Below are positions 3,741 through 37,589 of a DNA stretch of 64,000 nucleotides, one piece after another. This stretch comes from an uncultured Candidatus Saccharibacteria bacterium. GTDB lineage: Bacteria > Patescibacteriota > Minisyncoccia > Phycocordibacterales > SBAW01. The stretch lies in contig CAZTNI010000001.1 of the NCBI GenBank assembly GCA_964615415.1, positions 112,746-176,745 on the forward strand, given 5' to 3'. Each line of letters begins with the position of its first letter. Position 1 is the first letter of the stretch. The notes under the pieces were generated by a model that was not told the origin of the DNA, did no database searches, and saw nothing but the letters and a program-made list of their open reading frames with translations. The translations under genes were made by a program, and so were the position numbers.

Positions 3741-3770
3741 TTGACATTTGTCTATTAAATATGGTATAAT
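3741..3770 (+). promoter_or_regulatory. sigma70-like promoter (TTGACA-18 nt-TGgTATAAT)
   Basis: TTGACA at 3741-3746 and an extended -10 TGgTATAAT ending at 3770, about 35 nt upstream of the 3807 ORF. Confidence 0.5.
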
Positions 3771-11284: not shown

Positions 11285-11356
11285 GCTCCCGTGGTGAAAT
11301 GGATATCACGACTGGCTTCGAACCAGTTGTTGGGGGTTCGAGTCCCTCCGGGAGCA
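11285..11356 (+). tRNA. tRNA-Arg (anticodon TCG)
   Basis: Hand-folded cloverleaf. Acceptor GCTCCCG/CGGGAGC, D-stem GTGA/TCAC, anticodon stem ACTGG/CCAGT with loop CTTCGAA, T-arm GGGGG-TTCGAGT-CCCTC. Confidence 0.85.
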
Positions 11357-11372
11357 CAAGTTCGTACATTTT

Positions 11373-11446
11373 GCGGCCATGGTTAAGTGGTATAATGCGT
11401 CCTTGCCAAGGACGAGTTGGGAGTTCGATTCTCCCTGGCCGCACCA
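11373..11446 (+). tRNA. tRNA-Gly (anticodon GCC), CCA encoded
   Basis: Acceptor GCGGCCA/TGGCCGC, anticodon stem CGTCC/GGACG with loop TTGCCAA, T-arm GGGAG-TTCGATT-CTCCC, 3' CCA. Confidence 0.85.
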
Positions 11447-11636
11447 AAGTGTGTTTTAAGGGGCTCTAAGGTCAAAGACTTATTCCCCATCCTGTGAGTT
11501 TTAGGTTTGTTGAAAAATAAGGCTTTTTAAAGAACATCTGTGGATAAGTCTGTGGAGATGTGTATTAAAGACAAGTCTCAGATGTCTCTACATATGAGCA
11601 AAACGTTTCAATAGAAACGTTCTAACAAGGTTACAC

Positions 11637-12035
11637 GTGAACCCAGTGAAGACTGCTAAGCGGAACATAGGTGATATGGGAGAAGAAGTTGCTTGCGCCT
11701 ATCTTGAAAAGAAAGGGGATATTGTCATTGAGCGAAACTACCTCAAGCCGTGGGGAGAGATAGACATTGTGACAAAGCGGGGGAATAAGCTCGTATTTGT
11801 TGAGGTTAAGTCTGTTTCATGTGAATCAGTAGAAGATATTTCACGTGCAACAGTCCGGCCAGAGGAAAATATGCATTCCTCTAAGCTTAAACGCCTCCAT
11901 AGAGCCATACAAACGTACTTGTTGGACCATAAGGTGGGGGAGGAGGTGGAGTGGCAAATTGACCTCGCTTGTGTTTATCTAGACAGAGTACGAAAAGAGG
12001 CAAAAGTCGAATTGATAGAGAATATTGTCCTTTAG
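11637..12035 (+). CDS. yraN: YraN-family (UPF0102) endonuclease
   Basis: NIGDMGEEVACAYLEKKGDIVIERNY...GEIDIV...FVEVK, a PD-(D/E)xK fold typical of YraN. Confidence 0.8.
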   Translation: MNPVKTAKRNIGDMGEEVACAYLEKKGDIVIERNYLKPWGEIDIVTKRGNKLVFVEVKSVSCESVEDISRATVRPEENMHSSKLKRLHRAIQTYLLDHKVGEEVEWQIDLACVYLDRVRKEAKVELIENIVL

Positions 12036-12074
12036 TATGTTATTCTCGAGTCATACCGGAGGAAATCCTCCAGA

Positions 12075-12148
12075 ACGGGCTGTCGTATACCGGTAGTACG
12101 CTTGCTTTGGGAGCAAGATGACTGGGTTCGATTCCCAGCAGCCCGACC
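12075..12148 (+). tRNA. tRNA-Pro (anticodon TGG), CCA encoded
   Basis: Acceptor CGGGCTG/CAGCCCG, anticodon stem CTTGC/GCAAG with loop TTTGGGA, T-arm CTGGG-TTCGATT-CCCAG, 3' ACCA. Confidence 0.85.
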
Positions 12149-12150
12149 AG

Positions 12151-13023
12151 ATGAAACGTGTAACCTTGCAAGTGGCCTCAGGAGGAGAGTATGAACTCCT
12201 CGACTGTGGCGGTGAAGAAAAGCTTGAGAAATATAGTAATGTCGTGCTTGTACGCCCCGACCCACAGGCGCTCTGGGAAAAATCTTTACCGGAGTCAGAG
12301 TGGCACAAGGCGGACGGACGCTACGAACGCGAGGGTAGGGAGGGGAAGTGGATTACTAAAACGACGCTTCCTAAGGAATGGCCGATCCAGTTTGGCGGTT
12401 TTACCTTTATTATTCGCCCTACTTCCTTTAAGCACACCGGAGTTTTTCCGGAACAGGAAGCTAATTGGGCCTGGATCAGCGAATCTGTTACAAAAGCGGG
12501 CAGGGGAGTGAAAGTGCTTAACCTCTTTGCCTACACTGGCGGGGCTACGCTCGCTGCGGCTGCTGCGGGCGCTGAAGTGACACATGTAGATGCTTCTAAA
12601 ACAGCTGTAACGTGGGCAAGAGAAAATGCCGCAGCCTCAAACTTGAGCGAAGCTCCTATACGCTGGATTGTTGAAGATGTACGCCTATTTGTAGAGCGTG
12701 AACTGAAGCGAGGTAACAAATATGACCTTATTTTAATGGATCCGCCGGCCTTTGGTCATGGTCCTAAGGATGAATTATGGAAAATCGAGGAGCATTTGGT
12801 GGAGTTTATTAAACTTTGCAGCCAATTACTGACTGAAAAGCCGCTCGGTATCCTTATAAACGGCTACGCCGAAGGGTATTCTCCACTTGCGTTTGCGTAT
12901 AACCTAGAGCCTTTACAGGAAAAGTATGGTGGTTCGATCGAATATGGCGAGCTTACTATAGAAGACAAGGCAAAAAAGCGACTTCTCCCTGCAGGTATCT
13001 TTGCTCGGTGGCGAACAATTTAG
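12151..13023 (+). CDS. Class I SAM-dependent methyltransferase (RlmI/RlmK-like)
   Basis: LNLFAYTGGATLAAAAAGA...DPPAF motifs. The ORF-track start at 12118 overlaps tRNA-Pro, so the Met at 12151 was used. Confidence 0.8.
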   Translation: MKRVTLQVASGGEYELLDCGGEEKLEKYSNVVLVRPDPQALWEKSLPESEWHKADGRYEREGREGKWITKTTLPKEWPIQFGGFTFIIRPTSFKHTGVFPEQEANWAWISESVTKAGRGVKVLNLFAYTGGATLAAAAAGAEVTHVDASKTAVTWARENAAASNLSEAPIRWIVEDVRLFVERELKRGNKYDLILMDPPAFGHGPKDELWKIEEHLVEFIKLCSQLLTEKPLGILINGYAEGYSPLAFAYNLEPLQEKYGGSIEYGELTIEDKAKKRLLPAGIFARWRTI

Positions 13024-14177
13024 TTGTTAAGCGCAGTAATCAGCTTCTCGCGCTCTCCTGGGGCAACGTTTGTGGCAAAATCAGCCGCTGCCTCTGCTAT
13101 GTCTGTACTCAAAAGTGCTTTAATACCTCCTTTGCCTTCTGCGGCAAGGCTTCGGTTAATATGGCTCAGCATAACGGCACGTAAGTCTCGGTCGCCGGTC
13201 GTTGCACCTGCGGTTGCAGTCGAAATAAGGCTCATAACTCGACTGTCGCTACCGCGTACGACTGCGCCGCCAGAAGCTCCACCTTGCGAAAGTACGGTGC
13301 CGCCAATCGAAATAACATCAATAAAGCCTTTTTCGTCAAAGGTGAACAGTTTTTGCACGACGGTAAATGCTGAAGTGACATATAAATCGCGTTCAATTGA
13401 TGTTCCGTTAAGAAAACCGGCAGGATACCCAGCAAGAAGCACTTCTTCACCGATCTCTGGGTCGTCTGTTGTAAGGCCGACGTTAGGAAAAGAGGCAGGA
13501 AGGGGAGTGTTGAGGTCTGCAGAGGCAGTGATACGGAGGAAGGCGTAGTCGTGTTCTCCGGTACCAAGTGGCCTCTCTGCCTTTAATTGGCTCGCATTCG
13601 CATCGATCCATGCAGGTGGTAGGTAGAGTAGCTCTGCCTTGTACCGTGGCTCTGCGGGCGATCCTGTGCGAATAGTGCATTCTACACTGTTAGGCGTTGG
13701 ATAATCTTTAAGAAGAAAAAATTGGCCTATGTGAGCGTTGGTAAGAATGACTCCACGCGAGTCGACAATGATCCCTGAGCCTGAAATAGAGCCAATACCG
13801 CTTCCGCTCCGGGCAATACACAGAATATTTACAAGTGATGCTCGGGTATTTGCATTTACCGCCTCGTAGTTGATCGCTACCGGCTTAGGAGAAGTGCCAG
13901 AAGCGCTTTGTGTGGCTGTAGAAGGGGAAGAAAGGGGAGTAGAAACCGGTTTTTGAGCCGTAGAGGGTGTTTTTTTAACAGTGCTGGTGGGTATAGATAT
14001 GGCGACGGTGGTGTGTGTAATGGGTAGCTCTACTTCAAGCACCTCTCCTTCTTGAGGTACGTAGGAGGTAAGGGGAGGGAAGTCGATGTGGAGTGCTACA
14101 AGAGCGCTCCCAAGCGCTATAGTAATTGTTATAAATAGTGAGTCGATTGCCCGTAGAAGGGTAGAGAGGACTTCCAT
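13020..14177 (-). CDS. Trypsin-like serine protease (S1 family) with N-terminal TM anchor and S/T/P-rich linker
   Basis: His (TNAHI), Asp (DYAFLRI) and Ser (GGASGGAV) triad spacing typical of the S1/HtrA-like fold. No PDZ domain evident. Confidence 0.7.
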   Translation of the reverse strand: MEVLSTLLRAIDSLFITITIALGSALVALHIDFPPLTSYVPQEGEVLEVELPITHTTVAISIPTSTVKKTPSTAQKPVSTPLSSPSTATQSASGTSPKPVAINYEAVNANTRASLVNILCIARSGSGIGSISGSGIIVDSRGVILTNAHIGQFFLLKDYPTPNSVECTIRTGSPAEPRYKAELLYLPPAWIDANASQLKAERPLGTGEHDYAFLRITASADLNTPLPASFPNVGLTTDDPEIGEEVLLAGYPAGFLNGTSIERDLYVTSAFTVVQKLFTFDEKGFIDVISIGGTVLSQGGASGGAVVRGSDSRVMSLISTATAGATTGDRDLRAVMLSHINRSLAAEGKGGIKALLSTDIAEAAADFATNVAPGEREKLITALNN

Positions 14178-14210
14178 ATTGGTTTAGTATACGGTACGAT
14201 TCGAGCAAAA

Positions 14211-14281
14211 GCGGGATTAGTTTAGTGGTAAAACGACAGTTTTCCAAACTGTAGTTGGGAGTTCGATTCTCCCATCCCGCA
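14211..14281 (+). tRNA. tRNA-Gly (anticodon TCC)
   Basis: Acceptor GCGGGAT/ATCCCGC, D-stem GTTT/AAAC, anticodon stem ACAGT/ACTGT with loop TTTCCAA, T-arm GGGAG-TTCGATT-CTCCC. Confidence 0.85.
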
Positions 14282-14324
14282 CACGTTCATACCGGATTCA
14301 TTACAAGCTGATTAAGTAACGAAC

Positions 14325-22428: not shown

Positions 22429-22758
22429 CTAGTGGCCAAGCAGCAATGGTATCACAAACTCCCGCAGTACTCCGCCCGAAGGGTTGGCAACCTCAAAGTA
22501 AACTGAGACCAAGAATATAATCCCTGACGCAAGGAACAGATACATTGCGAGGAGCGGTGGGCCGACATGCGACACATCATTTCCAGCAAGTCGTGCCTTC
22601 TGGAGTTGCATGCTCTTCCGCATGATGAGGAAGCAAAAGCCAACGAAACAGAGTATTTCCGCAAGGAACAATACCAGGCTTACCCAAAAGACTGTGTTAG
22701 GAGACATCGCTATTCCTCCGGTTTGTGTGAATTCGTCCGCCGTGACTATACCACTCAA
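22429..22758 (-). CDS. Hypothetical membrane protein
   Basis: 109 aa (start may be the internal Met at 22707). Three hydrophobic helices. Confidence 0.4.
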   Translation of the reverse strand: MSGIVTADEFTQTGGIAMSPNTVFWVSLVLFLAEILCFVGFCFLIMRKSMQLQKARLAGNDVSHVGPPLLAMYLFLASGIIFLVSVYFEVANPSGGVLREFVIPLLLGH

Positions 22759-22773
22759 TGTATACTATGGCTA

Positions 22774-24444
22774 ATGCACGTTGATGAACGCGTCCTCGCG
22801 GATTTTCTTATTGATAGCGGACTTATCTCCCGCGGCACGCTTGCTGACGCGCGTTCGCGAGCAAGCGAACAAGGAGAAACGTTTTATGATGCGCTGTTAA
22901 GTGGTGGATTTGTTAGCGGCGACCACTTGCGTCGTGCGGCGGCGCACACACTTGGTGTGCCGTTTGTGATGCTTGAAGAAAGCGACATCGCACCGGAGGC
23001 ACTCGTGCTTATTCCGGAACCGCTTTCGCGTACGCACAACATAGTTGCATTTCGGGTGCACGACACAACTTTGGAAGTGGCGCTCCTGAACCTTGATGAT
23101 CTGAAATTACTCGAGTCGCTCCCTGTTGCAACAAGCTACAAACTCGCGCCGCGACTTACCACCCAACACTCTATAAAAAAGGCTCTGCTTGGCTATCAAA
23201 AGCACCTCAAGGAGAAGTTTGGCTCCTTTGCACAGCACGGCTTCCATGTTGTGGAAGGCCTTATAAAACACGCTATTTATAGTCGTGCAGGCGGCGTGCA
23301 TATAGAACCATCTACGACGGGCTTTCTTATCCGCTACCGCATCGGCGAGATGCTGCACGAAGCTATGCAGCTTCCTGAACACGTTGGCAAACTCCTGGTC
23401 GACCAACTAAAGGCGGCAGCAAAACTATTTCCCGTTGCAAGTGCGCAAGAAGGACACTTTACTATCGAACACGATAATGAAACACACACGGTGCACCTCT
23501 CCACTATGCCGATCCATAAAGGAGAGAAGTTAGTACTTCGTCTCGCAAAACAAGATGTGCATGCAAAAATAGGAAGCTTAGAGTCCCGAGGGTTTCATGG
23601 CGAAGCGCTTGAGGCGTTACACAAAGCCCTCGCGCTGCGTTCTGGACTCATTCTGGTTGCAAGCGAAGACGCAAAACACTTGCAGTCGCTGCTCTATACA
23701 CTCCTTGCTACTGCAGCACATCCGTATCGTGCCCTTGCGAGCGTGGAAGAGGGTGTGACGTTGCATTTGCCACATGTTGCACAGGGGAGCACTACCGTCT
23801 CGAAGCTTTCCTACGCAACACTCTTGCGCACGACGCTGAAACACGACCCGGATGTGGTTATGGTCAGTCGTGTGGATGAAACAGAGGTAGCGCTCCTGGT
23901 AAGCGAGGCTGCATCAAACGGCAAACTGATCATTGCGGGTATAGAAGCTCCGTCCGCGGGCAGGGCTATAGAAAAAATGCGCAACTTCGGTGTTTCACCC
24001 CTCCTTCTAGCGTCAGTAGTAAAAGTCGCAGTTGCTTCAACGATACTACGCAAGCTGTGTCCGCACTGTCGCAGTACGCACCGGCTCTCGCGCGCGGAAG
24101 GCGCCATTTTGGAAGAGCGGGCAGACTTCGGGCGCGTCTTTACTGCATTAAAAGAAGAGGGGGTGATAGACCGCGCCGCAAGCTGGAAAGAACTCGACTT
24201 TTACTGGCCGGAGGGCTGTAGCAAATGCGAGGGGGGATATATGGGCGGGGTAGGGGTAGGAGAGGCCTTGCCTATATCTCAGGTCCAAAAAGAGCTTATT
24301 TTACGAGAGATGTCGGGGGAAGACATGGCAAACCAGGCCCGGGTAGAGGGGGGTCTAAACCTCCCGGAAGACGCCCTTTTTAAGGCTGCGAGGGGGGATA
24401 CCTCTCTAGAAGAGGTGGTAGCCCTTGTGAAACGCCCGAACTAA
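22774..24444 (+). CDS. GspE/PilB-family (type II secretion / type IV pilus ATPase-like) protein with degenerate ATPase motifs
   Basis: N-terminal T2SSE_N/MshEN-like domain (LADFLIDSGLISRGTLADARSRASEQ...) and a C-terminal tetracysteine motif (CPHC...CSKC). The Walker A position reads GLILVASEDAKHLQS instead of GPTGSGKT, Walker B reads DPDVVMVSRVDE, and the His-box reads GKLIIAGIEAPSA. Confidence 0.75.
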   Translation: MHVDERVLADFLIDSGLISRGTLADARSRASEQGETFYDALLSGGFVSGDHLRRAAAHTLGVPFVMLEESDIAPEALVLIPEPLSRTHNIVAFRVHDTTLEVALLNLDDLKLLESLPVATSYKLAPRLTTQHSIKKALLGYQKHLKEKFGSFAQHGFHVVEGLIKHAIYSRAGGVHIEPSTTGFLIRYRIGEMLHEAMQLPEHVGKLLVDQLKAAAKLFPVASAQEGHFTIEHDNETHTVHLSTMPIHKGEKLVLRLAKQDVHAKIGSLESRGFHGEALEALHKALALRSGLILVASEDAKHLQSLLYTLLATAAHPYRALASVEEGVTLHLPHVAQGSTTVSKLSYATLLRTTLKHDPDVVMVSRVDETEVALLVSEAASNGKLIIAGIEAPSAGRAIEKMRNFGVSPLLLASVVKVAVASTILRKLCPHCRSTHRLSRAEGAILEERADFGRVFTALKEEGVIDRAASWKELDFYWPEGCSKCEGGYMGGVGVGEALPISQVQKELILREMSGEDMANQARVEGGLNLPEDALFKAARGDTSLEEVVALVKRPN

Positions 24445-24498
24445 CTAGGTTTTAAGCCAAATATCGGCTCTATAGAGCCATTTTTTATATGGAAATGC

Positions 24499-24527
24499 TT
24501 GACAAAAGCCTCCTTTGGGTGTATACT
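24499..24527 (+). promoter_or_regulatory. Consensus sigma70 promoter (TTGACA-17-TATACT)
   Basis: TTGACA 24499-24504, 17-nt spacer, TATACT 24522-24527. Confidence 0.55.
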
Positions 24528-24573
24528 TAATGGGTAATAGTGTTCCTTCTATATATGTAGCTTCCGGTAGTGC

Positions 24574-24602
24574 TTGACAAAATGCGCCACCTATGATACA
24601 AT
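24574..24602 (+). promoter_or_regulatory. Consensus sigma70 promoter with extended -10 (TTGACA-17-TGaTACAAT)
   Basis: TTGACA 24574-24579, 17-nt spacer, TGaTACAAT ending at 24602. Confidence 0.55.
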
Positions 24603-24731
24603 AGAAAGGTAACAGTGCAGTACGGGTTCGCTTGTACAGCAACAACTCAATAGCAAGACAATCTGAGGAGAGAGTCTTAAGGGAAGTCCAGTCTAGTAAT
24701 AGATAGGGCTCCTTAATCAATCAATTGCTTT

Positions 24732-24776
24732 AAACAAAGGCGATTGGCTCCTCAAACAAGGGCCAGTCGCCTTTGT
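24732..24776 (+). repeat. 16-bp stem hairpin
   Basis: aacaaaggcgattggc ... gccagtcgcctttgtt (one G-U pair), 13-nt loop. Confidence 0.7.
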
Positions 24777-24784
24777 TCGTTAGT

Positions 24785-24848
24785 AGGGACACTTCTGGAG
24801 GTAGGTCAAAAATTTTAAACCAAACCAGCCTGATCTCCAGAAGTGTCC
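24785..24848 (+). repeat. Perfect 14-bp stem hairpin with 34-nt A/T-rich loop
   Basis: ggacacttctggag ... ctccagaagtgtcc. Loop gtaggtcaaaaattttaaaccaaaccagcctgat. Confidence 0.7.
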
Positions 24849-25016
24849 TCGCTACGACAGTATGTGCAGTCGGTGAGTGGAGGATGGGTCTCTGACAACA
24901 AAATAGCGAATTAAGTTCAACAGGAGAAAAACTGTTGCGTAAGCAACGACTCCATATTGTTGTTCTTCTTCGCCGAGCTGACCTCACATAGGTCGGAGCG
25001 GCAAGAAGGATCGCAA

Positions 25017-25262
25017 ATGATCCTGAAGTTCTTTTTCAACCCGCCGCTCAATGCGGCAGAGGAGATTCAGATGAACAAGGCAGAGCGTGCAGTGAAGGTC
25101 CAGCTTGCGCTGGAGCTTCTCAAGAAGACTTCCATTCCGAAGGTCCGGAGAAATCCGGACCTAAACGCCTGGGTCAACACGGCTTCGCAGCTGCTCGGTC
25201 TCCGTGGCGACTCTGCCGCGGACTTCGAGAATGAGCTCGAAGTTGCGTACATTCGCAGCTAG
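25017..25262 (+). CDS. Hypothetical protein
   Basis: 81 aa from the ATG at 25017 (RBS aagga). The ORF track starts at TTG 24957. Confidence 0.3.
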   Translation: MILKFFFNPPLNAAEEIQMNKAERAVKVQLALELLKKTSIPKVRRNPDLNAWVNTASQLLGLRGDSAADFENELEVAYIRS

Positions 25263-25267
25263 GGCTC

Positions 25268-25316
25268 CCGGGCGACGCGAAAACTATCCCGCGTCGTCCA
25301 CCCATTCAAATTTTTG
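25268..25316 (+). terminator. Putative terminator hairpin
   Basis: gggcgacgcg-aaaactatcc-cgcgtcgtcc, then ...atttttgg. The T-run is displaced 8-9 nt, hence weak. Confidence 0.35.
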
Positions 25317-25382
25317 GACAATCGAAAATTTGAACGGGTCGCAATCAGGCGATTCCGAAACCCTCAAGGGGAGGTACGTGTC

Positions 25383-25793
25383 ATGGGCTATAACGAAACC
25401 GGACGCCTCTTCGAGAGGCGAGTAATCGGTGAGTGCACGGTGTCCTACCAAGGTCACCTGTGCTGGAAGGAAGCTGCCGCGCAGGTTCGCAAGAATCAGC
25501 CGAAGCAGCTTCCGAAGAATGCCACGGACCTTCTCGCGGAGGTTCGCCGGCAGACCAAGGCCGATGTGCAGTTCTACACTGCGATCGGCAGCGCCCTGGA
25601 TTACTTTCACGGCGTTGACGGATTCTTTGAGTTTGCGGGCTTTGTGGTGACGATCGACGTTACCAAGAACCCGCACAAGGATTGTGGGAAGGCCAACATG
25701 GTCGTCTGCGAAGACGATCTTGAAGATCTTCCTGCGCTTGCGGGCCGCGTGGTCCGCGAGTTTGTAACGCAAGCGAGGAGAGCAGGAATATAA
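25383..25793 (+). CDS. Hypothetical protein
   Basis: 136 aa from the ATG preceded by RBS aggggagg. GC3-rich codon usage. No family recognised. Confidence 0.45.
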   Translation: MGYNETGRLFERRVIGECTVSYQGHLCWKEAAAQVRKNQPKQLPKNATDLLAEVRRQTKADVQFYTAIGSALDYFHGVDGFFEFAGFVVTIDVTKNPHKDCGKANMVVCEDDLEDLPALAGRVVREFVTQARRAGI

Positions 25794-25795
25794 AA

Positions 25796-26047
25796 ATGAA
25801 AAACCGCAAACCTCGCGCGGCGTTTCTGTTTGAATGCCGACGATGCGGGGGGCAGTACCCCGTCTCCAAAAAGACGGCGGAGCAGTTCCTCTCCAAGGAA
25901 TTGCGAAAAAAGCTCAAACACGCTCTTGGTCATGAAGGAGCTGTGGGAGCCGTTCTAACGTTTAAGAACGGATGTCCCCAGTGCGTCCCGGAAAATCTTG
26001 AGGCAGTAGTTGAGCTTTCGGTCCTAGAGCCGAAACAAACGCACTAA
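25796..26047 (+). CDS. Small zinc-ribbon-like protein (CxxC...CxxC)
   Basis: 83 aa: FECRRCGG...NGCPQC. Confidence 0.4.
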   Translation: MKNRKPRAAFLFECRRCGGQYPVSKKTAEQFLSKELRKKLKHALGHEGAVGAVLTFKNGCPQCVPENLEAVVELSVLEPKQTH

Positions 26048-26395
26048 CGAGGCGAGCAGCAATGCTCGCCTCCTCTATAACCCAGCTGACACCCTGTTGG
26101 CTGGATTTCGAGGAGACTGCCAGACATGATCATGACCGAGGTTCTCATTCTGAACCCCCGCCGCTGCAAGTGCCGCTGGCACCGTTTCAAGACGGTGTAC
26201 TGCCACGAGGCGCCGGCGTTGGCCCAGCTCCTGCGGGAGATGGGCTACCAGGCCAGGCTTCGCCTCGCTTAGTACACAAATGGTTTGGATGGGACGAGCG
26301 CGTAATTGCTCGCCCCACCAATTAAGTTTTTTACACAGGTAGAAAATTTAATTGGTCATCATTCGATGGCTGATTGTTCAAACGGAGGAAGTGTA

Positions 26396-26797
26396 ATGAT
26401 CAAGTTTCTTGGAATTTTGATTCTCGCGCTCAGTGCCAACATGTTCTTCGTCCTCGTGTTCGACCCGCAGGGCATGTCGGCCGAGGGCTACATCCTCGGC
26501 TGGGGCATGACCCTGGCGGCGATTTTCGCTGGCCCGGCGACCTGGCGCATGGCTGGGGGACACGCTCCTGTAGAGGGGTGGGGAGTCGCGTTCCTCGCTA
26601 TCTCCCTCTGCGTCACCGCAATCAGTGTCTACCTGTTCGTGGATGTCGCGATGCTTGCGAGGACTGCCGAGACTGAGGCTTCCATCGTCCTCGGCGTGTT
26701 CGCCGCCATGCTGGCGGGCCTCGGACTGCTCATGGCCCATCTGGCTCAGAAGCTCATGGCGGACAGCATCAACGAGCCCGCCACTTCCAACACGTAA
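26396..26797 (+). CDS. Hypothetical multi-pass membrane protein
   Basis: 133 aa from the ATG at 26396 (RBS ggagg), four hydrophobic helices, strong GC3 bias. Confidence 0.5.
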   Translation: MIKFLGILILALSANMFFVLVFDPQGMSAEGYILGWGMTLAAIFAGPATWRMAGGHAPVEGWGVAFLAISLCVTAISVYLFVDVAMLARTAETEASIVLGVFAAMLAGLGLLMAHLAQKLMADSINEPATSNT

Positions 26798-26884
26798 CGG
26801 CAACAAGCCGTTCAAGAGGCAAGCGTTCGCGCTTGCCTCACTATCTAAGTTCTTATCTCGTCATCAAGACGGATGAGAGTTTAG

Positions 26885-26910
26885 ATAGGACCGCAAATCA
26901 GTTGTGGTCC
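26885..26910 (+). promoter_or_regulatory. Operator-like palindrome ATAGGACCGCAAATCAgTTGTGGTCC
   Basis: GGACC-N13-GGTCC dyad immediately upstream of the RBS/ATG of the 26935 gene. A near-identical copy lies at 27171-27196. Confidence 0.5.
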
Positions 26911-26934
26911 TGAAGTTCAACAAGGAGAGAAGCG

Positions 26935-27102
26935 ATGTGGATTCTTCTTACGCTCGCAGCTTGCGTGTTTGCCTACGCGGGCAAGCATCCGGATACCTTC
27001 GGACTGGCGCATGACGACTCTTTTCTGATGTATGTGATCGCAGTCGTTTTCGTCCTCTGGGCGATCATGGCTGCCATCACCGCTTCCGTACGGAAGTGGT
27101 GA
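26935..27102 (+). CDS. Small hydrophobic protein (55 aa, two predicted helices)
   Basis: MWILLTLAACVFAYAGKHPDTFGLAHDDSFLMYVIAVVFVLWAIMAAITASVRKW. RBS aaggagag 6 nt upstream. Below the ORF-track length cutoff. The opposite-strand ORF 26917-27123 is considered spurious. Confidence 0.4.
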   Translation: MWILLTLAACVFAYAGKHPDTFGLAHDDSFLMYVIAVVFVLWAIMAAITASVRKW

Positions 27103-27170
27103 CCAACCAAGGAGCAAGCGCAAATGCTTGCTCCACTATTTAAGTTTTTCAGTGAATGGAAAATTTAAAT

Positions 27171-27196
27171 AGGACCGCAAATCATTTGTGGTCCGA
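27171..27196 (+). promoter_or_regulatory. Operator-like palindrome ATAGGACCGCAAATCAtTTGTGGTCC (copy 2)
   Basis: Same dyad as 26885-26910, upstream of the 27219 gene. Confidence 0.5.
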
Positions 27197-27218
27197 TGGT
27201 TCAACCAAGGAGAGTGCA

Positions 27219-27560
27219 ATGACTGTTCTGAAGATTGTTGTTCTGTTCATCCTGCAGGCCGTCGCTTTTGTTGCGTATGTGGCGGCGGGGTTTGCTGCTG
27301 TGTTTCTCGTTCTGGCGGCTATCGGGTCTGTCGTTCATCTGATCGGCAACCAGGACCAGATCGACGAGCTGCAGGCATGGCTCGTGTTCTTCGCCTACAT
27401 CGGCGCGTTCGCGGTGATCGCGACCGTCGGGAACTTCCTCGACGCGCTGTTTTCCGCTTGCGATGCCGAGCGCAAGGCGATCATCGTTCGGTGGAAGTAC
27501 GACCGTCAGACGCGGCGGCTCTACCCGAACGCTGGCAAGCCGAGCCTCGACTTCCGCTAA
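27219..27560 (+). CDS. Hypothetical membrane protein
   Basis: 113 aa from the ATG at 27219 (RBS aaggagag), three hydrophobic helices. Confidence 0.5.
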   Translation: MTVLKIVVLFILQAVAFVAYVAAGFAAVFLVLAAIGSVVHLIGNQDQIDELQAWLVFFAYIGAFAVIATVGNFLDALFSACDAERKAIIVRWKYDRQTRRLYPNAGKPSLDFR

Positions 27561-27657
27561 CTACAAGCGGGAGTACAATTGGAGCAAGCTCAAGCAGCTT
27601 GCTCCCTCTACAAAGCTAATAAGCAATCCCGCTTACTAGCTTTCGGAGGGAACGAAG

Positions 27658-27825
27658 ATGATTCTCCAGTACCTTCAGAAGGGTCTTCGTCTGGCCAACG
27701 ACGCCTTCACGGCGTACACGGCCAAAGACCCGAATTACATCGCACTTAAAACTGCGGTGTTCACAGGCGTTCCCATTCTTTGGATGAAGATCCAGGAGTG
27801 GCGACGCAAACTCGCGGCGAAGTAA
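27658..27825 (+). CDS. Small hypothetical protein (55 aa)
   Basis: MILQYLQKGLRLANDAFTAYTAKDPNYIALKTAVFTGVPILWMKIQEWRRKLAAK. RBS ggaggg. Below the ORF-track cutoff. Confidence 0.35.
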   Translation: MILQYLQKGLRLANDAFTAYTAKDPNYIALKTAVFTGVPILWMKIQEWRRKLAAK

Positions 27826-27858
27826 TCTTACGATTCCTTCGCCGCTCCTTCTAAATAT

Positions 27859-28191
27859 TCAATCGATTCCTCTACAAGCGAAAGTTTGTACGGTTGAATG
27901 TTTAGAAGGGGCGATAATATCAACCCTATACAAGGCCGAGGGCGCACAGATTTTTGTTGCGTACAGCTGTTCTCCCGGTAGCACCAGGAGTTCTCGCATG
28001 TCTCGCGAGGTGAAATAACGAGCCCGGTGTTTTCCCCACCGGCCTACCTGCTCCCGCTTTGTGCGGTAAAGGGGTTCAAGAAAAAGGGAGGTGAAGACGA
28101 TGGTTGCGACCGCCTTTAGCGACAGCGACTCGTCTTGCACTAACACAATGTGTTTTGTAGAGCGCGCATTTTGAGCGCAGCTCCAAAGCAC
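27859..28191 (-). CDS. Hypothetical protein
   Basis: 110-aa ORF on the opposite strand inside the island, no recognisable family. Confidence 0.25.
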   Translation of the reverse strand: MLWSCAQNARSTKHIVLVQDESLSLKAVATIVFTSLFLEPLYRTKREQVGRWGKHRARYFTSRDMRELLVLPGEQLYATKICAPSALYRVDIIAPSKHSTVQTFACRGID

Positions 28192-28304
28192 TTTCCGACC
28201 GTTCGTATTGCATGAGTGGTCGGCTTTGTACTGTCTATACTCGAGTGGGCAATTTTTGTTCCCACTCGTTTTTCATGGGTCGCAGAAATGTTTAAACTGC
28301 GGCC

Positions 28305-28365
28305 CCGTTTCAAGATTTTTTCACAAGAAGAAATTTTGAAACGGGGATCGAAAATGTTCCCCTGC
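28305..28365 (+). promoter_or_regulatory. Conserved 5' leader, copy 1 (ccYtttcaagat..ttttgaaaSgggga-tcgaaaATGtt-cccc)
   Basis: About 85% identical to 29075-29135. A hairpin (gggga/tcccc) encloses the ATG of the uORF at 28354-28425 (MFPCVQVQVQPAPIDMGQHRRVE), whose stop overlaps the ATG at 28422. Confidence 0.5.
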
Positions 28366-28421
28366 GTGCAAGTTCAAGTTCAACCCGCTCCCATTGATAT
28401 GGGGCAACACAGGAGAGTGGA

Positions 28422-29033
28422 ATGATTCTCATCAAGGTGACCCCGAAGCAGGACGACATCTTCATCGTCGGCCCGCTCGGCCTCGCCGTGCACATGACCG
28501 CCATCACCCTCGAGGTGGAGGTGGTCATGGTGCCGACGCCGGCGACAGCGCTCGAGATGTACGAGCTGGCTATGCAGGTCAACGCGCTCGGCTTCGGCTG
28601 GGCCGGCGACCTGCTCCTTCGGGAGGCTATTCGCCTCGCGGAGAAGGAGCTCAACGAGTGGTTCACTGCTGCCGCTCTCGACATGGGCGACCTCGACGAG
28701 GCATTCCAGCTCCCGCCGGACCTCGAGGAGATTTACGGCCGCCCGCAGCCGCAGGTGTCGCGTCGTGCGACCAACCCCGGCTACGGCGGCTTCGCCGACA
28801 TGTTCGACGAGATCTTCGGTTCGGCCGATGCCTTCCGCTATCGCGGCGGCCTCGACGCCGGCCAGGATCCGTTCGTCGACGATCGGCCGTTCAACCATCG
28901 CGACTTCGGTCGGGGTCTCGGGCTCGATCACGAGGGTTCTCGGCACTTCGGCGCCGACCTCGCTGCGCGTCTCGCCAACCATGTCGGCTCGTTCGGCAAC
29001 GGCCACTATCGCGGCCACCAGCCGCATCGTTAG
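28422..29033 (+). CDS. Hypothetical protein: structured N-terminal ~100 aa plus G/R/D/F-rich low-complexity C-terminus
   Basis: 203 aa with extreme GC3 bias identifying the frame. The overlapping ORFs 28394-29197 (+) and 28380-29027 (-) are alternative-frame artefacts of the high-GC DNA. Confidence 0.5.
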   Translation: MILIKVTPKQDDIFIVGPLGLAVHMTAITLEVEVVMVPTPATALEMYELAMQVNALGFGWAGDLLLREAIRLAEKELNEWFTAAALDMGDLDEAFQLPPDLEEIYGRPQPQVSRRATNPGYGGFADMFDEIFGSADAFRYRGGLDAGQDPFVDDRPFNHRDFGRGLGLDHEGSRHFGADLAARLANHVGSFGNGHYRGHQPHR

Positions 29034-29074
29034 TACTGTCTACAACATTGGCGAACGCGCTTACGCGTTCGCCA

Positions 29075-29135
29075 CCCTTTCAAGATCTTTTTTCGAAAGA
29101 GATTTTGAAAGGGGATTCGAAAATGTTTCCCTGGA
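29075..29135 (+). promoter_or_regulatory. Conserved 5' leader, copy 2
   Basis: The uORF 29123-29197 (MFPWNVCNRPVGNGANKEEVHEQP) overlaps the downstream ATG at 29184, and the hairpin around its start codon is conserved. Confidence 0.5.
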
Positions 29136-29183
29136 ATGTGTGTAACCGCCCCGTCGGAAATGGGGCAAACAAGGAGGAAGTGC

Positions 29184-29342
29184 ATGAGCAACCGTGACAT
29201 CGAGCGCGTCGCCGCCGCCCGCGGCATCTCGAACAACGCGGCGAAGAAGATGATGCGGCGCCGCAAGGGCGGCACCAAGTCGCCCGCCGTCCCGGTCCGC
29301 GGGATGCCCGTTGCCGGCACCGGCAAGCCCAAGGGCGAATAG
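29184..29342 (+). CDS. Small basic protein (52 aa)
   Basis: MSNRDIERVAAARGISNNAAKKMMRRRKGGTKSPAVPVRGMPVAGTGKPKGE. RBS aaggagga 7 nt upstream. Confidence 0.35.
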   Translation: MSNRDIERVAAARGISNNAAKKMMRRRKGGTKSPAVPVRGMPVAGTGKPKGE

Positions 29343-29463
29343 TCTGATCTTTTCCTGGGCGGACGCAAATGTCCGCCCTCTACTTAAGTTCGCCACGGTG
29401 TATAGTGGTGGTGGACTTAACGGGAGTTCTAACCGCGGAGGAAATCCGCAGAAAGGAGGGAAG

Positions 29464-29658
29464 GTGAGTATTGAAAGGTACTTGTGGACCATCTGGGCGG
29501 TGATCGCTGTTGTGGCGGTTGCTGCTGCGGAGGGCCATTGGGTCATGGTGGCTGTCGTACTTCTGGTCACTGCGCTCATGGCTAAGGCCTTTGGGCCGTG
29601 GCCGCGTCCTTGGAAGCGGCATTCAGTTTCGGAGGTCCGGCATGGACCTGCGGAATGA
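29464..29658 (+). CDS. Small hydrophobic protein (GTG start)
   Basis: RBS aaaggaggg, then GTG. VSIERYLWTIWAVIAVVAVAAAEGHWVMVAVVLLVTALMAKAF... Confidence 0.3.
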   Translation: MSIERYLWTIWAVIAVVAVAAAEGHWVMVAVVLLVTALMAKAFGPWPRPWKRHSVSEVRHGPAE

Positions 29659-29782
29659 GCGGCCTATTCCCGAAGACGAGGAGAATCCGAACCGAGGCAT
29701 GTGGGTATTCGTACTCAGCATGATACTCGGGGTGGCGCTCGTACTTGGGCTCGCTACGTGGCGAGGTGTCCTTGTACTCTGA
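29642..29782 (+). CDS. Small hydrophobic protein (46 aa)
   Basis: MDLRNERPIPEDEENPNRGMWVFVLSMILGVALVLGLATWRGVLVL. RBS ggagg. Overlaps the previous gene by 17 nt. Confidence 0.3.
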   Translation: MDLRNERPIPEDEENPNRGMWVFVLSMILGVALVLGLATWRGVLVL

Positions 29783-29805
29783 TCGTCTGCTTCGGGAGCG
29801 AAAAC

Positions 29806-29838
29806 GGACGAACGCGAAATTATGTCTCGCGTTCGTCC
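29806..29838 (+). terminator. GC hairpin (perfect 12-bp stem) followed by 'ctctattcagtt'
   Basis: ggacgaacgcga-aattatgtc-tcgcgttcgtcc. Confidence 0.45.
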
Positions 29839-30026
29839 ACTCTATTCAGTTCGCCTTATATAAGGTGAACTGATCGAGTCTTTGTAAAACTGTTTCGTAC
29901 TCGGCGTGCCCAGTGTCATGGCAGCAAAAACTCTCTCCTCGAGAAATTTTTCTTCGCTTCTATGATGCTTGGCACGCCGAGTATGTATTTCGGTTTTACT
30001 GTGTAACTGAAACAAAGGAGACTTGA

Positions 30027-30524
30027 ATGTCTGCACCTTCAACACCTGCTCCTGCGAATGCTGGCATGTCGTGGAAGCTGAAGGTTTTGATCGCCGTCGC
30101 CGTCGCCGGGCTCATCGCTTGGTGGGGCATCGACAGCAACCTTCGCTTCGGATTGTGGGGATGGGCGGCTGGTGCCGCCTTCCTCATCACACTGTTCTTC
30201 CTGAGTGGTGTGATCGGTTGGACGATGAAGCACCCGGTCGCTACTCTCATCGGTCTCGTAGCCTTCCTCTACGGAGGCGTCTACCTTTGGCAGACGCTCT
30301 CGGAAGGTCGGCCGCCGTTCGGTAGCTGGATGACGCCCGAAACCCAGGCGAAGTTCGGCGAAACGGGCGAGCTGATGGATCCGTTCAACCTCGCTCTGAT
30401 CCTCGTCGCTGGCGCTGGCGGACTGTTCTTCTTGTGGAAGGCCTGGGAAAATGGCCGCAAGAATCGCGAAGAAGCCAAGAAGAAGAAGGCAGAAGCTGCC
30501 AAACACAAGGGCAGTGGCCACTAG
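30027..30524 (+). CDS. Hypothetical membrane protein with Lys-rich C-terminus
   Basis: 165 aa, four hydrophobic helices. RBS aaaggag. Confidence 0.5.
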   Translation: MSAPSTPAPANAGMSWKLKVLIAVAVAGLIAWWGIDSNLRFGLWGWAAGAAFLITLFFLSGVIGWTMKHPVATLIGLVAFLYGGVYLWQTLSEGRPPFGSWMTPETQAKFGETGELMDPFNLALILVAGAGGLFFLWKAWENGRKNREEAKKKKAEAAKHKGSGH

Positions 30525-30555
30525 TACCTTGCGGCAAGTGCCGCACAACAATATC

Positions 30556-30594
30556 GGGCCCCCGACGCTTCGCGCGTCGGGGGCCTTTTCTGTT
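30556..30594 (+). terminator. Intrinsic terminator (right edge of the high-GC block)
   Basis: gggcccccgacg-cttcgcg-cgtcgggggcc-ttttctgtt. Confidence 0.6.
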
Positions 30595-30599
30595 ATTAT

Positions 30600-31367
30600 G
30601 TGCACATGGCAAAAAAGCGTCTCGTGGTTGGTAACTGGAAAATGTATATTACTTCGCCTGAGGACGCATCAAAGTTTACAGTCGCGCTTCGCCGCAAGGT
30701 GCGCGGAGTCTCCGGTGTCGATGTATTTCTTGCTCCTCCGTTTACTATCCTTCCTAAAGTAGCGGACACACTCAGTAGTTCTCCTATACAGGTCGGCGCG
30801 CAAACTATCTCTGCTTTTATGGACGAAAAGCACACAGGAGATATTTCAGGAGTGATGCTTAAAAAAGCTGGTGCCTCGTTTGTTATTATTGGCCACTCCG
30901 AGCGCCGTTCACTCGGCGAAACGAACGAGCTCGTGCACGACCAAGTACTTCGCGCAGTTGAGTCGGGCCTTACGCCTATTCTTTGTATTGGCGAAAAAGA
31001 ACATGAAGAAGGCGGCGCACATTTTAATTTTATTGAACAGCAACTTTCGTCGGCTCTCAAAGACCTTCCACCAAAAGCTGTAAAGAAATTAATTATTGCC
31101 TACGAACCCGTGTGGGCGATAGGGAAAGCGGCAGCCGATGCTATGAAGCCGCAGGACCTTGAGCAGATGGTTATCTTCATTAAAAAAGTGCTCGCCGACT
31201 CGCTCGACCGCAAGGTGGCGCTCAGCGTGCCGATCCTGTACGGAGGTTCAGTAGAAGCAGAGAATGCGCCGAGTTTGTTGGAAACAGGGATCTCGGGCTT
31301 CCTTGTGGGGCGCGCAAGTACCGACGTTGATTCATTTACGCAGATAATCACTCTATGCAAAAAATAA
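30600..31367 (+). CDS. tpiA: Triosephosphate isomerase
   Basis: VVGNWKM, IIGHSERR, AYEPVWAIG motifs. Confidence 0.95.
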   Translation: MHMAKKRLVVGNWKMYITSPEDASKFTVALRRKVRGVSGVDVFLAPPFTILPKVADTLSSSPIQVGAQTISAFMDEKHTGDISGVMLKKAGASFVIIGHSERRSLGETNELVHDQVLRAVESGLTPILCIGEKEHEEGGAHFNFIEQQLSSALKDLPPKAVKKLIIAYEPVWAIGKAAADAMKPQDLEQMVIFIKKVLADSLDRKVALSVPILYGGSVEAENAPSLLETGISGFLVGRASTDVDSFTQIITLCKK

Positions 31368-37211: not shown

Positions 37212-37589
37212 TTGCTTATTTCCGCTCGAATAGTTCACCTTGTCAAAGAAGACACTTGTGGCATAATTAATGCAGATGCAACCTGGGCCTGGAGGTTCCC
37301 AATGGTAGATGCAAGTAATGTGGTGTTATTTCCGACACCTGCGCGCAAGTTGCGCAAATCCCGCCAAGATATGCTGCATAAGCTTGGAAGGGAAGCAATG
37401 CTGGGTCTAGAGAGGGTGGTTCGACAAACTATCCCAGAGACATACGACGCTTTGTCCCGAGATGAGCAAGTGCTGTTGGTGGCGACTTACGCGACACAGC
37501 TGCTGCGAGACACGGCGGACAGGTTGGAAACCAAAGTCATACTCCCGCGTTTGGAAGCGGAAAAGGAACGTCTTGAACAAGTGGTGTAG
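37212..37589 (+). CDS. Hypothetical protein
   Basis: 125-aa ORF with no recognisable motifs. Confidence 0.3.
   Translation: MLISARIVHLVKEDTCGIINADATWAWRFPMVDASNVVLFPTPARKLRKSRQDMLHKLGREAMLGLERVVRQTIPETYDALSRDEQVLLVATYATQLLRDTADRLETKVILPRLEAEKERLEQVV

Follow-up and report, generated by a model that had tools for sequence, protein, structure and literature searches.

The locus described here lies in a 64-kb window, by which we mean the whole stretch of DNA that was analysed, from the chromosome of an uncultured bacterium. In this window an insert of 6.16 kb (24445-30605) carries about 13 small plus-strand open reading frames (ORFs; 25017-30524, GC 56%); the whole insert is what we call the island. 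Its left end (24445-25016), flagged beforehand in a sequence-only reading, comprises two strong promoter-like sites, P1 and P2, and a non-coding leader. Upstream of the insert are nusA, ppa and then a pilB-like T2SSE ATPase gene (22567-24444), and downstream are tpiA (30600) and pgk (31355), which overlap each other. We propose that 24445-25070 is the 5' control region of the island, that the island is one plus-strand transcription unit, and that a cis-acting leader RNA gates and conditions the transcription coming from P1 and P2. For this statement as a whole we estimate a probability of about 0.6. The features are summarized in Table 1.

Table 1. Features of the leader and the island, in order along the plus strand of the window.
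Feature	Position	Strand	Description
Short GC hairpin	24466-24486	+	GGCTCTATAGAGCC, then a T run; just upstream of P1; terminator-like site in scan
P1	24499-24527	+	TTGACA-17-TATACT, TGGGTG before the -10; 11/12 consensus
P2	24574-24602	+	TTGACA-17-TACAAT with upstream TG; 11/12 consensus
5' hairpin	24616-24641	+	UUCG loop; in the minimum free energy (MFE) and centroid folds
Purine-motif hairpin	24655-24678	+	Small hairpin AAGAC-AAUCUGAGGAGAGA-GUCUU; bears the purine-rich motif, consensus AUCUUUAGAGGAGAGAGUC
T1	24733-24786	+	Hairpin 1 and U tract (UUUGUUCGUU); intrinsic-terminator-like
Hairpin 2	24787-24848	+	Long variable helix; arms 24787-24800 and 24835-24848
Single-stranded motif	24888-24910	+	GUCUCUGACAAC-AAAAUAGCGAA; family consensus UCUUUGACAA; resembles boxA
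GNRA element	24923-24953	+	Helix GGAG/CUCC, A-rich internal loop, 5-bp hairpin with GUAA (GNRA) loop
H4	24958-25015	+	22-bp helix UGUUGUUCUUCUUCGCC...GGCAAGAAGGAUCGCA; in covariance model R1; most conserved part of the leader
H5	25007-25024	+	Local hairpin AGGAUCGCAAAUGAUCCU; reuses the 3' arm of H4; 25017 ATG in its loop
Gene 1	25071-25262	+	63 amino acids (aa), or 81 aa if the start is 25017; variable between islands
Genes 2 and 3	25383-26047	+	Conserved core, the only genes common to the loci; gene 2 (25383-25793), 136 aa; gene 3, 83 aa
Variable cargo	26062-30524	+	About 10 small genes, several for membrane proteins, split by repeated three-hairpin modules
Strong terminator	30556-30586	+	13-bp stem with 11 GC pairs, T run; closes the island just before tpiA

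The insertion can be delimited by comparison with the metagenomic locus of a distant relative, L147, which carries orthologues of the flanking genes (T2SSE ATPase, 42% identity; TIM, 51% identity; and PGK). In L147 the spacer between the T2SSE gene and tpiA is 16 nt long, and a separate copy of the island lies between tpiA and pgk. These reciprocal empty sites (pilB/tpiA in the window, tpiA/pgk in L147) indicate that 24445-30605 was inserted, promoters and hairpins included, and that the island moves. The sequence-only reading had taken the flagged segment for the left boundary of an island and had asked for a comparison with relatives that lack it, and the empty site agrees with that boundary. 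Elsewhere, the leader together with genes 2 and 3 adjoins other host genes, namely clpP (L003) and malic enzyme/recG (L011 and L132), and the gene 2/3 module neighbours mreB (L004) and a glutaredoxin gene (L007). The GC content of 24445-25016 is 43.7%, not the 42% or so given earlier, and it does lie below both flanks (51% on the left, 56% in the island on the right), as had been noted. Phage and plasmid records gave no match by blastn with the region or by tblastn with gene 2, and a scan of GTDB genomes with the pilB-like protein found no close relative. Filter fractions of 0.1-0.2 µm from groundwater are the source of several relatives, which suggests that the host lineage consists of ultra-small and possibly Patescibacteria-like bacteria.

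P1 and P2 lie 75 bp apart on the plus strand, as the sequence-only reading had described them, and both have the sigma-70 form (TTGACA/TATAAT with a spacer of 16-18 nt) with a spacer of 17 nt. P2 repeats 17 nt of the -35 region of P1 (repeat family D1). On both strands of the window one other site reaches at least 11 of the 12 consensus positions (at 3741, 12/12), and P1 and P2 take ranks 2 and 3 among the promoter-like sites. Because there is a single further site of this quality in 64 kb, the occurrence of both within 100 bp is far beyond chance, and the earlier remark that they exceed the typical promoters of this DNA holds. No promoter-like site with 10 or more consensus positions lies between 24602 and 37240, and the island contains one 9/12 site against 2.2 expected. 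With no other strong promoter inside, the island as a whole can credibly be driven by P1 and P2 only. Terminator-like sites in the island number 19 against 6.8 expected.

A consensus promoter is kept at the equivalent place in the homologous islands, in one to three copies per locus. The P1 form also heads the islands of L003, L007 and L011, and three tandem promoters, spaced 73-77 bp, occur in L134. The short GC hairpin just before P1 is predicted to act as a terminator of the pilB-like gene and an insulator in front of P1, and comparable A-run/hairpin/T-run motifs (AAAAAGCCCTTATTTTAGGGC...) stand 30-50 nt 5' of the promoter in L003, L011, L132, L147 and L007. The string CTTGACAA-N10-TGGGTGTATA, taken from P1 (24498-24525) and its homologues, was tried as a probe for the family and dropped as a useless marker. 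It occurs in at least 120 unrelated viral contigs of IMG/VR (L012-L131), where by our estimate a handful at most would be expected by chance, and the sites precede unrelated phage genes and tRNAs. It appears to represent a common form of strong, phage-type promoter in which a GGGTG element directly adjoins the -10.

Downstream of P1 and P2 lies a region that folds strongly on the plus strand (24609-25016; z = -9.7 relative to shuffled sequences, and -5.5 for the minus strand). The order of the leader elements is found, whole or in part, at eight independent metagenomic loci, namely the window and L135, L003, L011, L132 (with its near-duplicate L133), L147, L137 and L181 (with its near-duplicate L182). 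The homologous leader regions are 289-1015 nt long, with many indels and large insertions, and their 5' and 3' domains always co-occur in the same order, with the exception of L134 and the truncated L137.

A covariance model, R1, was built on the domain formed by the GNRA hairpin and H4. Searched against 54 family loci (387 kb), R1 scores 72-102 bits (E from 1e-14 to 1e-21) in the seed loci and finds nothing else; it then matched L181/L182, which were outside the seed and were fetched later, at 75.6 bits. Over the eight leaders, 95.8% of the cells of this domain are standard pairs and 14 of its 27 pairs have changed on both sides, values reached by none of 500 column shuffles. When the partners are slid by 1-3 columns, pairing falls to 36-49%, and a MAFFT alignment of the domain gives a similar pairing result. 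H4 is 98.9% paired, with 10 pairs changed on both sides. In helix 1 of the GNRA element this applies to four of the five pairs; the outer helix of the element appears as GGAG/CUCC, GCAG/CUGC or GUGA/UCAC, the inner stems differ in every lineage, and the loops are GUAA, GCAA, GAAA and GCAA. Three pairs of H4 are invariant U.G pairs, and one pair of the domain alternates between G.U and G-C. Because of these pairs, and because R1 reaches only about 20 bits on the reverse strand, the conserved structure is a plus-strand RNA and not a DNA cruciform. A separate search with the H4 pattern in viral contigs gave four matches, all of them attributable to chance; each falls within an ORF, and their covariance-model scores are 11-15 bits.

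At the gathering threshold, Rfam 15 recognizes only four tRNAs in the window. Between 24300 and 25300, with E values up to 10, the best score is 23 bits against cut-offs of 34-140, and in eight homologous loci only tRNA and transfer-messenger RNA are found, all outside the leaders. The Rfam comparison that had been recommended for the region thus assigns the leader to no family at threshold, either in the window or in the homologous loci. Supported by covariation and absent from Rfam, the leader represents a new family of structured RNA, although its general kind is known (an operon leader with an internal terminator). That it is a conserved plus-strand structured leader RNA belonging to the island we hold to be very probable.

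These data also bear on two explanations in which the region is not an RNA gene part. The first takes it as an element acting at the level of DNA, such as recombination, attachment or replication-origin structures, or as the integration scar that the sequence-only reading had offered. The region does lie at the exact left edge of the insert, the missing integrase means that an unusual mobility mechanism is needed, and conserved palindromic modules also separate the cargo genes. On the other strand, however, the invariant U.G and variable G.U pairs become A.C mismatches, both the R1 scores and the folding z values favour the plus strand, and the structures are framed by promoters and a U-tract terminator. 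The longest exact string shared by the ends of the insert is 8 nt, so there are no longer terminal direct repeats, and no integrase or recombinase domain was found in the island ORFs scanned. Since the promoters and hairpins accompany the island at its various host loci, the scar idea was given up, and a DNA-level element in general seems very improbable. The second explanation, that the minus strand codes for protein through the ORFs 24445-24720 and 24730-24987, we find hardly credible. The frames are open for 91 and 85 codons, but they start with TTG/GTG and match no Pfam or PHROG family; tblastn against seven homologous leaders gave one weak match, which reflects the nucleotide homology of L135; and the homologues vary by indels and compensatory base-pair changes, not by codon. 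The conserved minus-strand protein that the sequence-only reading had named as a possible explanation of the region was therefore not found in these comparisons.

Between the promoters and the most conserved domain lies T1. Of the two large perfect hairpins described earlier, both are present, and only hairpin 2 is perfect (14-nt arms with 34 nt between them); the 16-nt arms of hairpin 1 (24733-24748 and 24762-24777) are 94% complementary, with one mismatch. Hairpin 1 is built like an intrinsic terminator, with a 16-bp stem followed by UUUGUUCGU (6 U in 9 nt), and was overlooked by a simple terminator scan because its 13-nt loop exceeds the typical size. In all six leaders compared (window, L135, L003, L011, L132 and L147) a strong hairpin of different stem sequence with 6-7 U in 9 nt stands at this place, and L181 looks alike by eye. 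T1 was judged one sequence at a time, since insertions and unrelated stem sequences defeat alignment; neither MAFFT of the whole leader nor MAFFT/RNAalifold of T1 alone gave a usable sequence alignment.

The elements on either side of T1 vary more in sequence than in position. At the place of the 5' hairpin the other leaders have hairpins of unlike sequence. The purine-rich motif that follows (UUAGAGGAG) is nearly invariant in the window, L135 (three copies), L011, L132, L003, L147, L181 and L134, and its closing stem varies by locus (GAC/GUC, GCGCC/GGCGC and GAUC/GAUC); a variable hairpin separates it from T1. Downstream, the base of hairpin 2 (GGACAY/RUGUCC) and its loop AAACCAGC are common to the window and L135, and its inner stem is wholly swapped in L135 for another complementary pair of arms. 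Comparable long helices are present in L132 and L011, and not in L147, L003 and L181.

Transcripts that end at T1 would be short, about 175 nt when started at P2 and about 250 nt when started at P1, whereas read-through would yield a leader of about 470 nt (P2) or 540 nt (P1) that runs into the island genes. The sequence-only reading had considered a structured small RNA (sRNA) of about 300-400 nt. A structured plus-strand RNA is indeed there; a simple sRNA of that length is not, given the conserved T1 inside it. It is also conceivable that the region serves two separate functions, with the stretch from the promoters to T1 being a free-standing, abundant, trans-acting sRNA and the rest an ordinary 5' untranslated region (UTR). 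In that case the exposed UUAGAGGAG would sequester a protein or bind CU-rich targets by base pairing, among them the UUCCUC arm of H4 or an anti-Shine-Dalgarno sequence. An sRNA gene classically shows just this combination of strong tandem promoters, conserved terminator and nearly invariant loop motif. The motif is repeated threefold in the expanded L135 leader and present in L134, and its GAGGAG is the complement of UUCCUC, which is conserved in H4. The complementarity, however, spans only 6 nt and shows no covariation. Moreover, there is no promoter between T1 and the conserved 3' domain, which can therefore be made only by read-through of T1, and the two domains co-occur in order apart from the two exceptions mentioned. 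We consider two separate functions unlikely, although they are the strongest competitor of a single cis-acting leader.

The 3' domain begins with the single-stranded motif, which takes the form UCUUUGACAA(C)..AAUAGCGAA across the leaders, as read from the sequences, and is not present in the L003 leader. In gamma-proteobacteria the boxA consensus is GYTCTTTAANA (PMC5725501). The motif agrees with it at 8 of 11 positions in the window, L135 and L132, at 9 in L011 and L147, and at 10 in L181, where it should be noted that this consensus may not be that of the host; no rRNA genes are present in the fetched loci from which the boxA of the host rrn operons could be read. In six leaders the 5-bp GNRA hairpin follows 25-45 nt downstream of the motif. 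Near the end of the leader, H4 and H5 are alternative and mutually exclusive, because H5 reuses the 3' arm of H4. A local hairpin from the GGGNYCGCA segment, the counterpart of H5, folds in all eight leaders, and H5-like copies also occur in the intergenic regions of the island. This arrangement suggests a switch between two states, H4 and H5, shortly before the first start codon. A further boxA-like string, at 37249 on the minus strand, was set aside as merely the upstream region of a superoxide dismutase gene.

The motif raises the possibility that the leader signals processive antitermination, as lambda nut sites and rrn leaders do. In that case UCUUUGACAA would serve NusB/NusE as a boxA, the GNRA hairpin would be a boxB-like protein site, and RNA polymerase would be enabled to pass the hairpins that separate the island genes. 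Such a signal would suit a long operon with strong tandem promoters and many terminator-like hairpins, and the leader is linked to long cargo. The loci with a leader carry 5.5 kb of cargo in the window, at least 4.4 kb in L003, 4.7 kb in L011, 3.1 kb in L132 and 3.8 kb in L181, whereas the leaderless L004, L007 and L183 consist essentially of genes 2 and 3 behind a bare promoter. Nevertheless, every copy of the motif has G for A at position 8, and the C at position 6 in the window corresponds to T6C, which together with C4T inactivates the E. coli suhB boxA (PMC5725501). The absence from L003 also counts against a boxA, as does the position of the motif and GNRA element after T1, which they cannot explain, and the island ORFs scanned yielded no protein resembling N or Q. 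We treat Nus-dependent antitermination as a sub-hypothesis of the cis-acting leader and regard such a signal as unlikely, somewhat more so than the free-standing sRNA.

The island genes give few hints of function, as their ORFs received no assignment from Pfam, PHROG, PADLOC or NCBIfam. Gene 1 has no homologue in other islands. The sequence-only reading took 25017 as the start of the first credible ORF; an in-frame start is possible there, but gene 1 probably begins at 25071, because the latter is preceded by the Shine-Dalgarno (SD) sequence GAGGAG in a 'GGCAGAGGAGAUU..AUG' context as in L135, and the ATG at 25017 lies in a conserved hairpin loop. Gene 2 has homologues in metagenomes and belongs to a family of 994 representatives at 50% clustering with no Pfam domain; many copies stand directly behind a consensus promoter, without a leader. 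Its AF2 model is of high confidence (pLDDT 94.6). In Foldseek searches of the PDB the best E value is 0.4 or above, with PD-(D/E)xK nucleases (AvaII, VRR-NUC, I-Ssp6803I, Hjc and XisH) among many of the weak neighbours; a sequence search of the PDB gave no match, and the PADLOC REase_II match is marginal (E = 0.004, 13.9 bits). The invariant residues are E11, D73, H76, D79, D92, K99 and K103. Gene 3 is zinc-ribbon-like (CxxC...CxxC).

A strong promoter, a structured RNA, a terminator and a small putative nuclease recall the type III toxin-antitoxin system ToxIN, in which sense the T1-terminated RNA would be the antitoxin and gene 2, reached by read-through and weakly similar to PD-(D/E)xK and restriction enzymes, the toxin. 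This is very improbable. The region 24300-25300 has no tandem repeats, only the duplicated -35 region and chance 10-14-mers. Gene 2 is unrelated to ToxN, CptN and TenpN and has no PADLOC match above noise; searches of genes 1 and 2 against Pfam and of genes 1-3 against PADLOC and NCBIfam returned no ToxN/AbiQ, CptN, TenpN or other significant match. Many gene 2 loci are leaderless, and the variable gene 1 usually intervenes. TIGR-Tas arrays (PMC12045711) were also considered and dropped, as neither a Nop-domain protein nor an array of short interspaced repeats is present in the island.

The hairpin modules that split the island genes occur at 25263-25382, 26272-26395, 26798-26934, 27103-27218, 28280-28421, 29034-29183 and 29343-29465. 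Each consists of a GC-rich perfect hairpin, CCAC-ATTTAAGTTTTT, an AT-rich inverted repeat (e.g., CCCTTTCAAG...TTTGAAAGGGG), a UTR hairpin (GGAYCGCAAAU...GRUCC), GAAGTTCAAC and an SD sequence. The copy at 29050-29116 is about 80% identical to 5840-5907 of L147, where the backbone proteins are only 42-51% identical; direct pairwise alignment gave a score of 61 against 12.8 +/- 2.3 for shuffled sequences, and blastn-short with an intergenic module rose barely above the control. Upstream of the last island gene is an inverted repeat (29898-29983) with 31-nt arms that are 81% complementary, whose spacer holds AAAACTCTCTCCTC, complementary at 13 of 14 positions to GAGGAGAGAGTCTT of the leader (24665-24678), possibly by chance.

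Taken together, a promoter pair, an early terminator, a conserved RNA domain and an operon split by hairpins resemble the design of attenuated or antiterminated operons, and we infer a mechanism of that kind. P1 and P2 would fire into a non-coding structured leader that belongs to the island and not to the host. Most transcripts would stop at T1, giving the short RNA as a probable abundant by-product or co-regulator, and a regulated or leaky fraction would pass T1 into the cargo operon. The conserved domain downstream would then condition cargo expression, either by making RNA polymerase resistant to termination or, alternatively, by setting the processing, stability or translation of the mRNA through H4/H5. 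The mechanism gains weight from the boxA-like UCUUUGACAA with its GNRA hairpin, from the association of the leader with long cargo, and from the mutually exclusive H4 and H5 near the start codon. For the gating mechanism taken by itself, we put the chance slightly below even.

Several points weigh against this interpretation of the leader. Promoter and terminator activities are predictions that transfer consensus rules of the E. coli type to an organism not in culture. Only eight independent leaders are available, in which half of the H4 pairs are invariant. Lying 3' of T1, the most conserved domain cannot control T1 itself, and neither the MFE nor the centroid folds contain an antiterminator pairing that competes with the T1 arms. 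The intergenic hairpins may not be terminators, because most have no adjacent U tract. The association between leader and long cargo comes from about 10 loci, several of which are cut by contig ends, and L147 has a leader yet only about 2 kb of cargo.

The leader is tied to a large uncharacterized protein family (about 1000 clusters at 50% identity) from bacteria known only from metagenomes, and it offers a handle on how horizontally acquired gene arrays are expressed in such organisms. If the antitermination or processing signal is real, transcription control of the phage and rrn type would be found to extend to a cassette island in a chromosome, and the covariance model would be a searchable marker for such islands.

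Some further observations concern the surroundings of these islands. In L011 (13136-14913), L132 (12397-14147) and L181 (4305-4829) a gene for a sigma-70 factor of the extracytoplasmic function (ECF) type directly follows the island; it is followed in turn by a DUF5667 gene in L011 and L132, and the L181 contig ends there. These genes may be part of the element or a syntenic host locus. The distant relative L134 (7530-9840) combines its three tandem promoters with the GAGGAGAGAGUC motif and over 1 kb of non-coding DNA rich in hairpins, and has a Csx3-like gene (PF09620) just 5' of the gene 2 homologue; the H4 model has no match there. In the window, the 3' end of the pilB-like gene contains an exact 14-nt direct repeat, TGCGAGGGGGGATA, at 24226-24239 and 24387-24400, 161 nt apart. 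Four tRNA genes (Arg-TCG, Gly-GCC, Pro-TGG and Gly-TCC) lie within 3 kb on the plus strand (11285-14282); they are ordinary and unrelated to the island.

The island can be compared with several well-known systems. Leaders of rrn operons have tandem P1/P2 promoters followed by boxB-boxA-boxC and use Nus-factor antitermination. The island likewise has strong tandem promoters, a structured non-coding leader with a boxA-like motif beside a small hairpin, and a long downstream unit. Unlike in rrn operons, no rRNA follows, an intrinsic terminator precedes the motif, and Nus binding is putative; the motif departs from the gamma-proteobacterial consensus at one to three positions, one of them critical in the window. 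Lambdoid phages provide two parallels, pR'-tR' with its 6S RNA and Q, and the nut sites of pL/pR with N. The island resembles them in having a strong promoter, an intrinsic terminator within about 200 nt, a predicted short RNA, downstream genes that would be reached by read-through, and a GNRA-type hairpin near a boxA-like motif. It differs in that its nut-like elements come after the first terminator, no Q-like or N-like protein was recognized, and there are no phage structural or replication genes and no phage-database match.

Long, conserved, structured 5' leaders with an intrinsic terminator are also typical of riboswitches and attenuators, and a switch such as that proposed for H4/H5 near the start codon would fit among them. 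In contrast to those leaders, the island terminator lies upstream of the best-conserved domain, no antiterminator alternative to T1 was seen in the folds, and Rfam gives no match; no ligand can be suggested, since the downstream genes are of variable and unassigned function. The early region of phage T7 has the tandem host promoters A1-A2-A3, RNase III hairpins between the genes and the single terminator TE. Tandem host-type promoters on the left, an array of small genes with conserved hairpins and one strong terminator at the end recur in the island, although it is chromosomal, shares no sequence or protein similarity with T7-like phages, has only putative RNase III cleavage, and carries a leader terminator that T7 lacks.

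In integron arrays, promoterless cassettes separated by attC hairpins are transcribed from the Pc promoter. The island differs from them in that the ORFs scanned include no IntI tyrosine recombinase and in that its modules have three hairpins each instead of one attC. Reading the module sequences for attC cores (RYYYAAC/GTTRRRY) showed GTTCAAC before the SD sequence and no paired GTTRRRY at the junctions. What the two have in common is a strong promoter at one end, small variable genes in one direction, deviant GC content and imperfect palindromes between the genes. A bolder idea, to which we give little credence, is that the leader, genes 2 and 3 and the three-hairpin modules constitute an unrecognized kind of gene-cassette island of uncultured, probably ultra-small bacteria. 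Its promoter-leader "head" would drive an exchangeable array of small genes, it would move between intergenic sites by means of the nuclease-like protein of gene 2 without a tyrosine or serine recombinase, and the leader and modules would serve as cis signals, making the island an analogue of the integron built from other parts.

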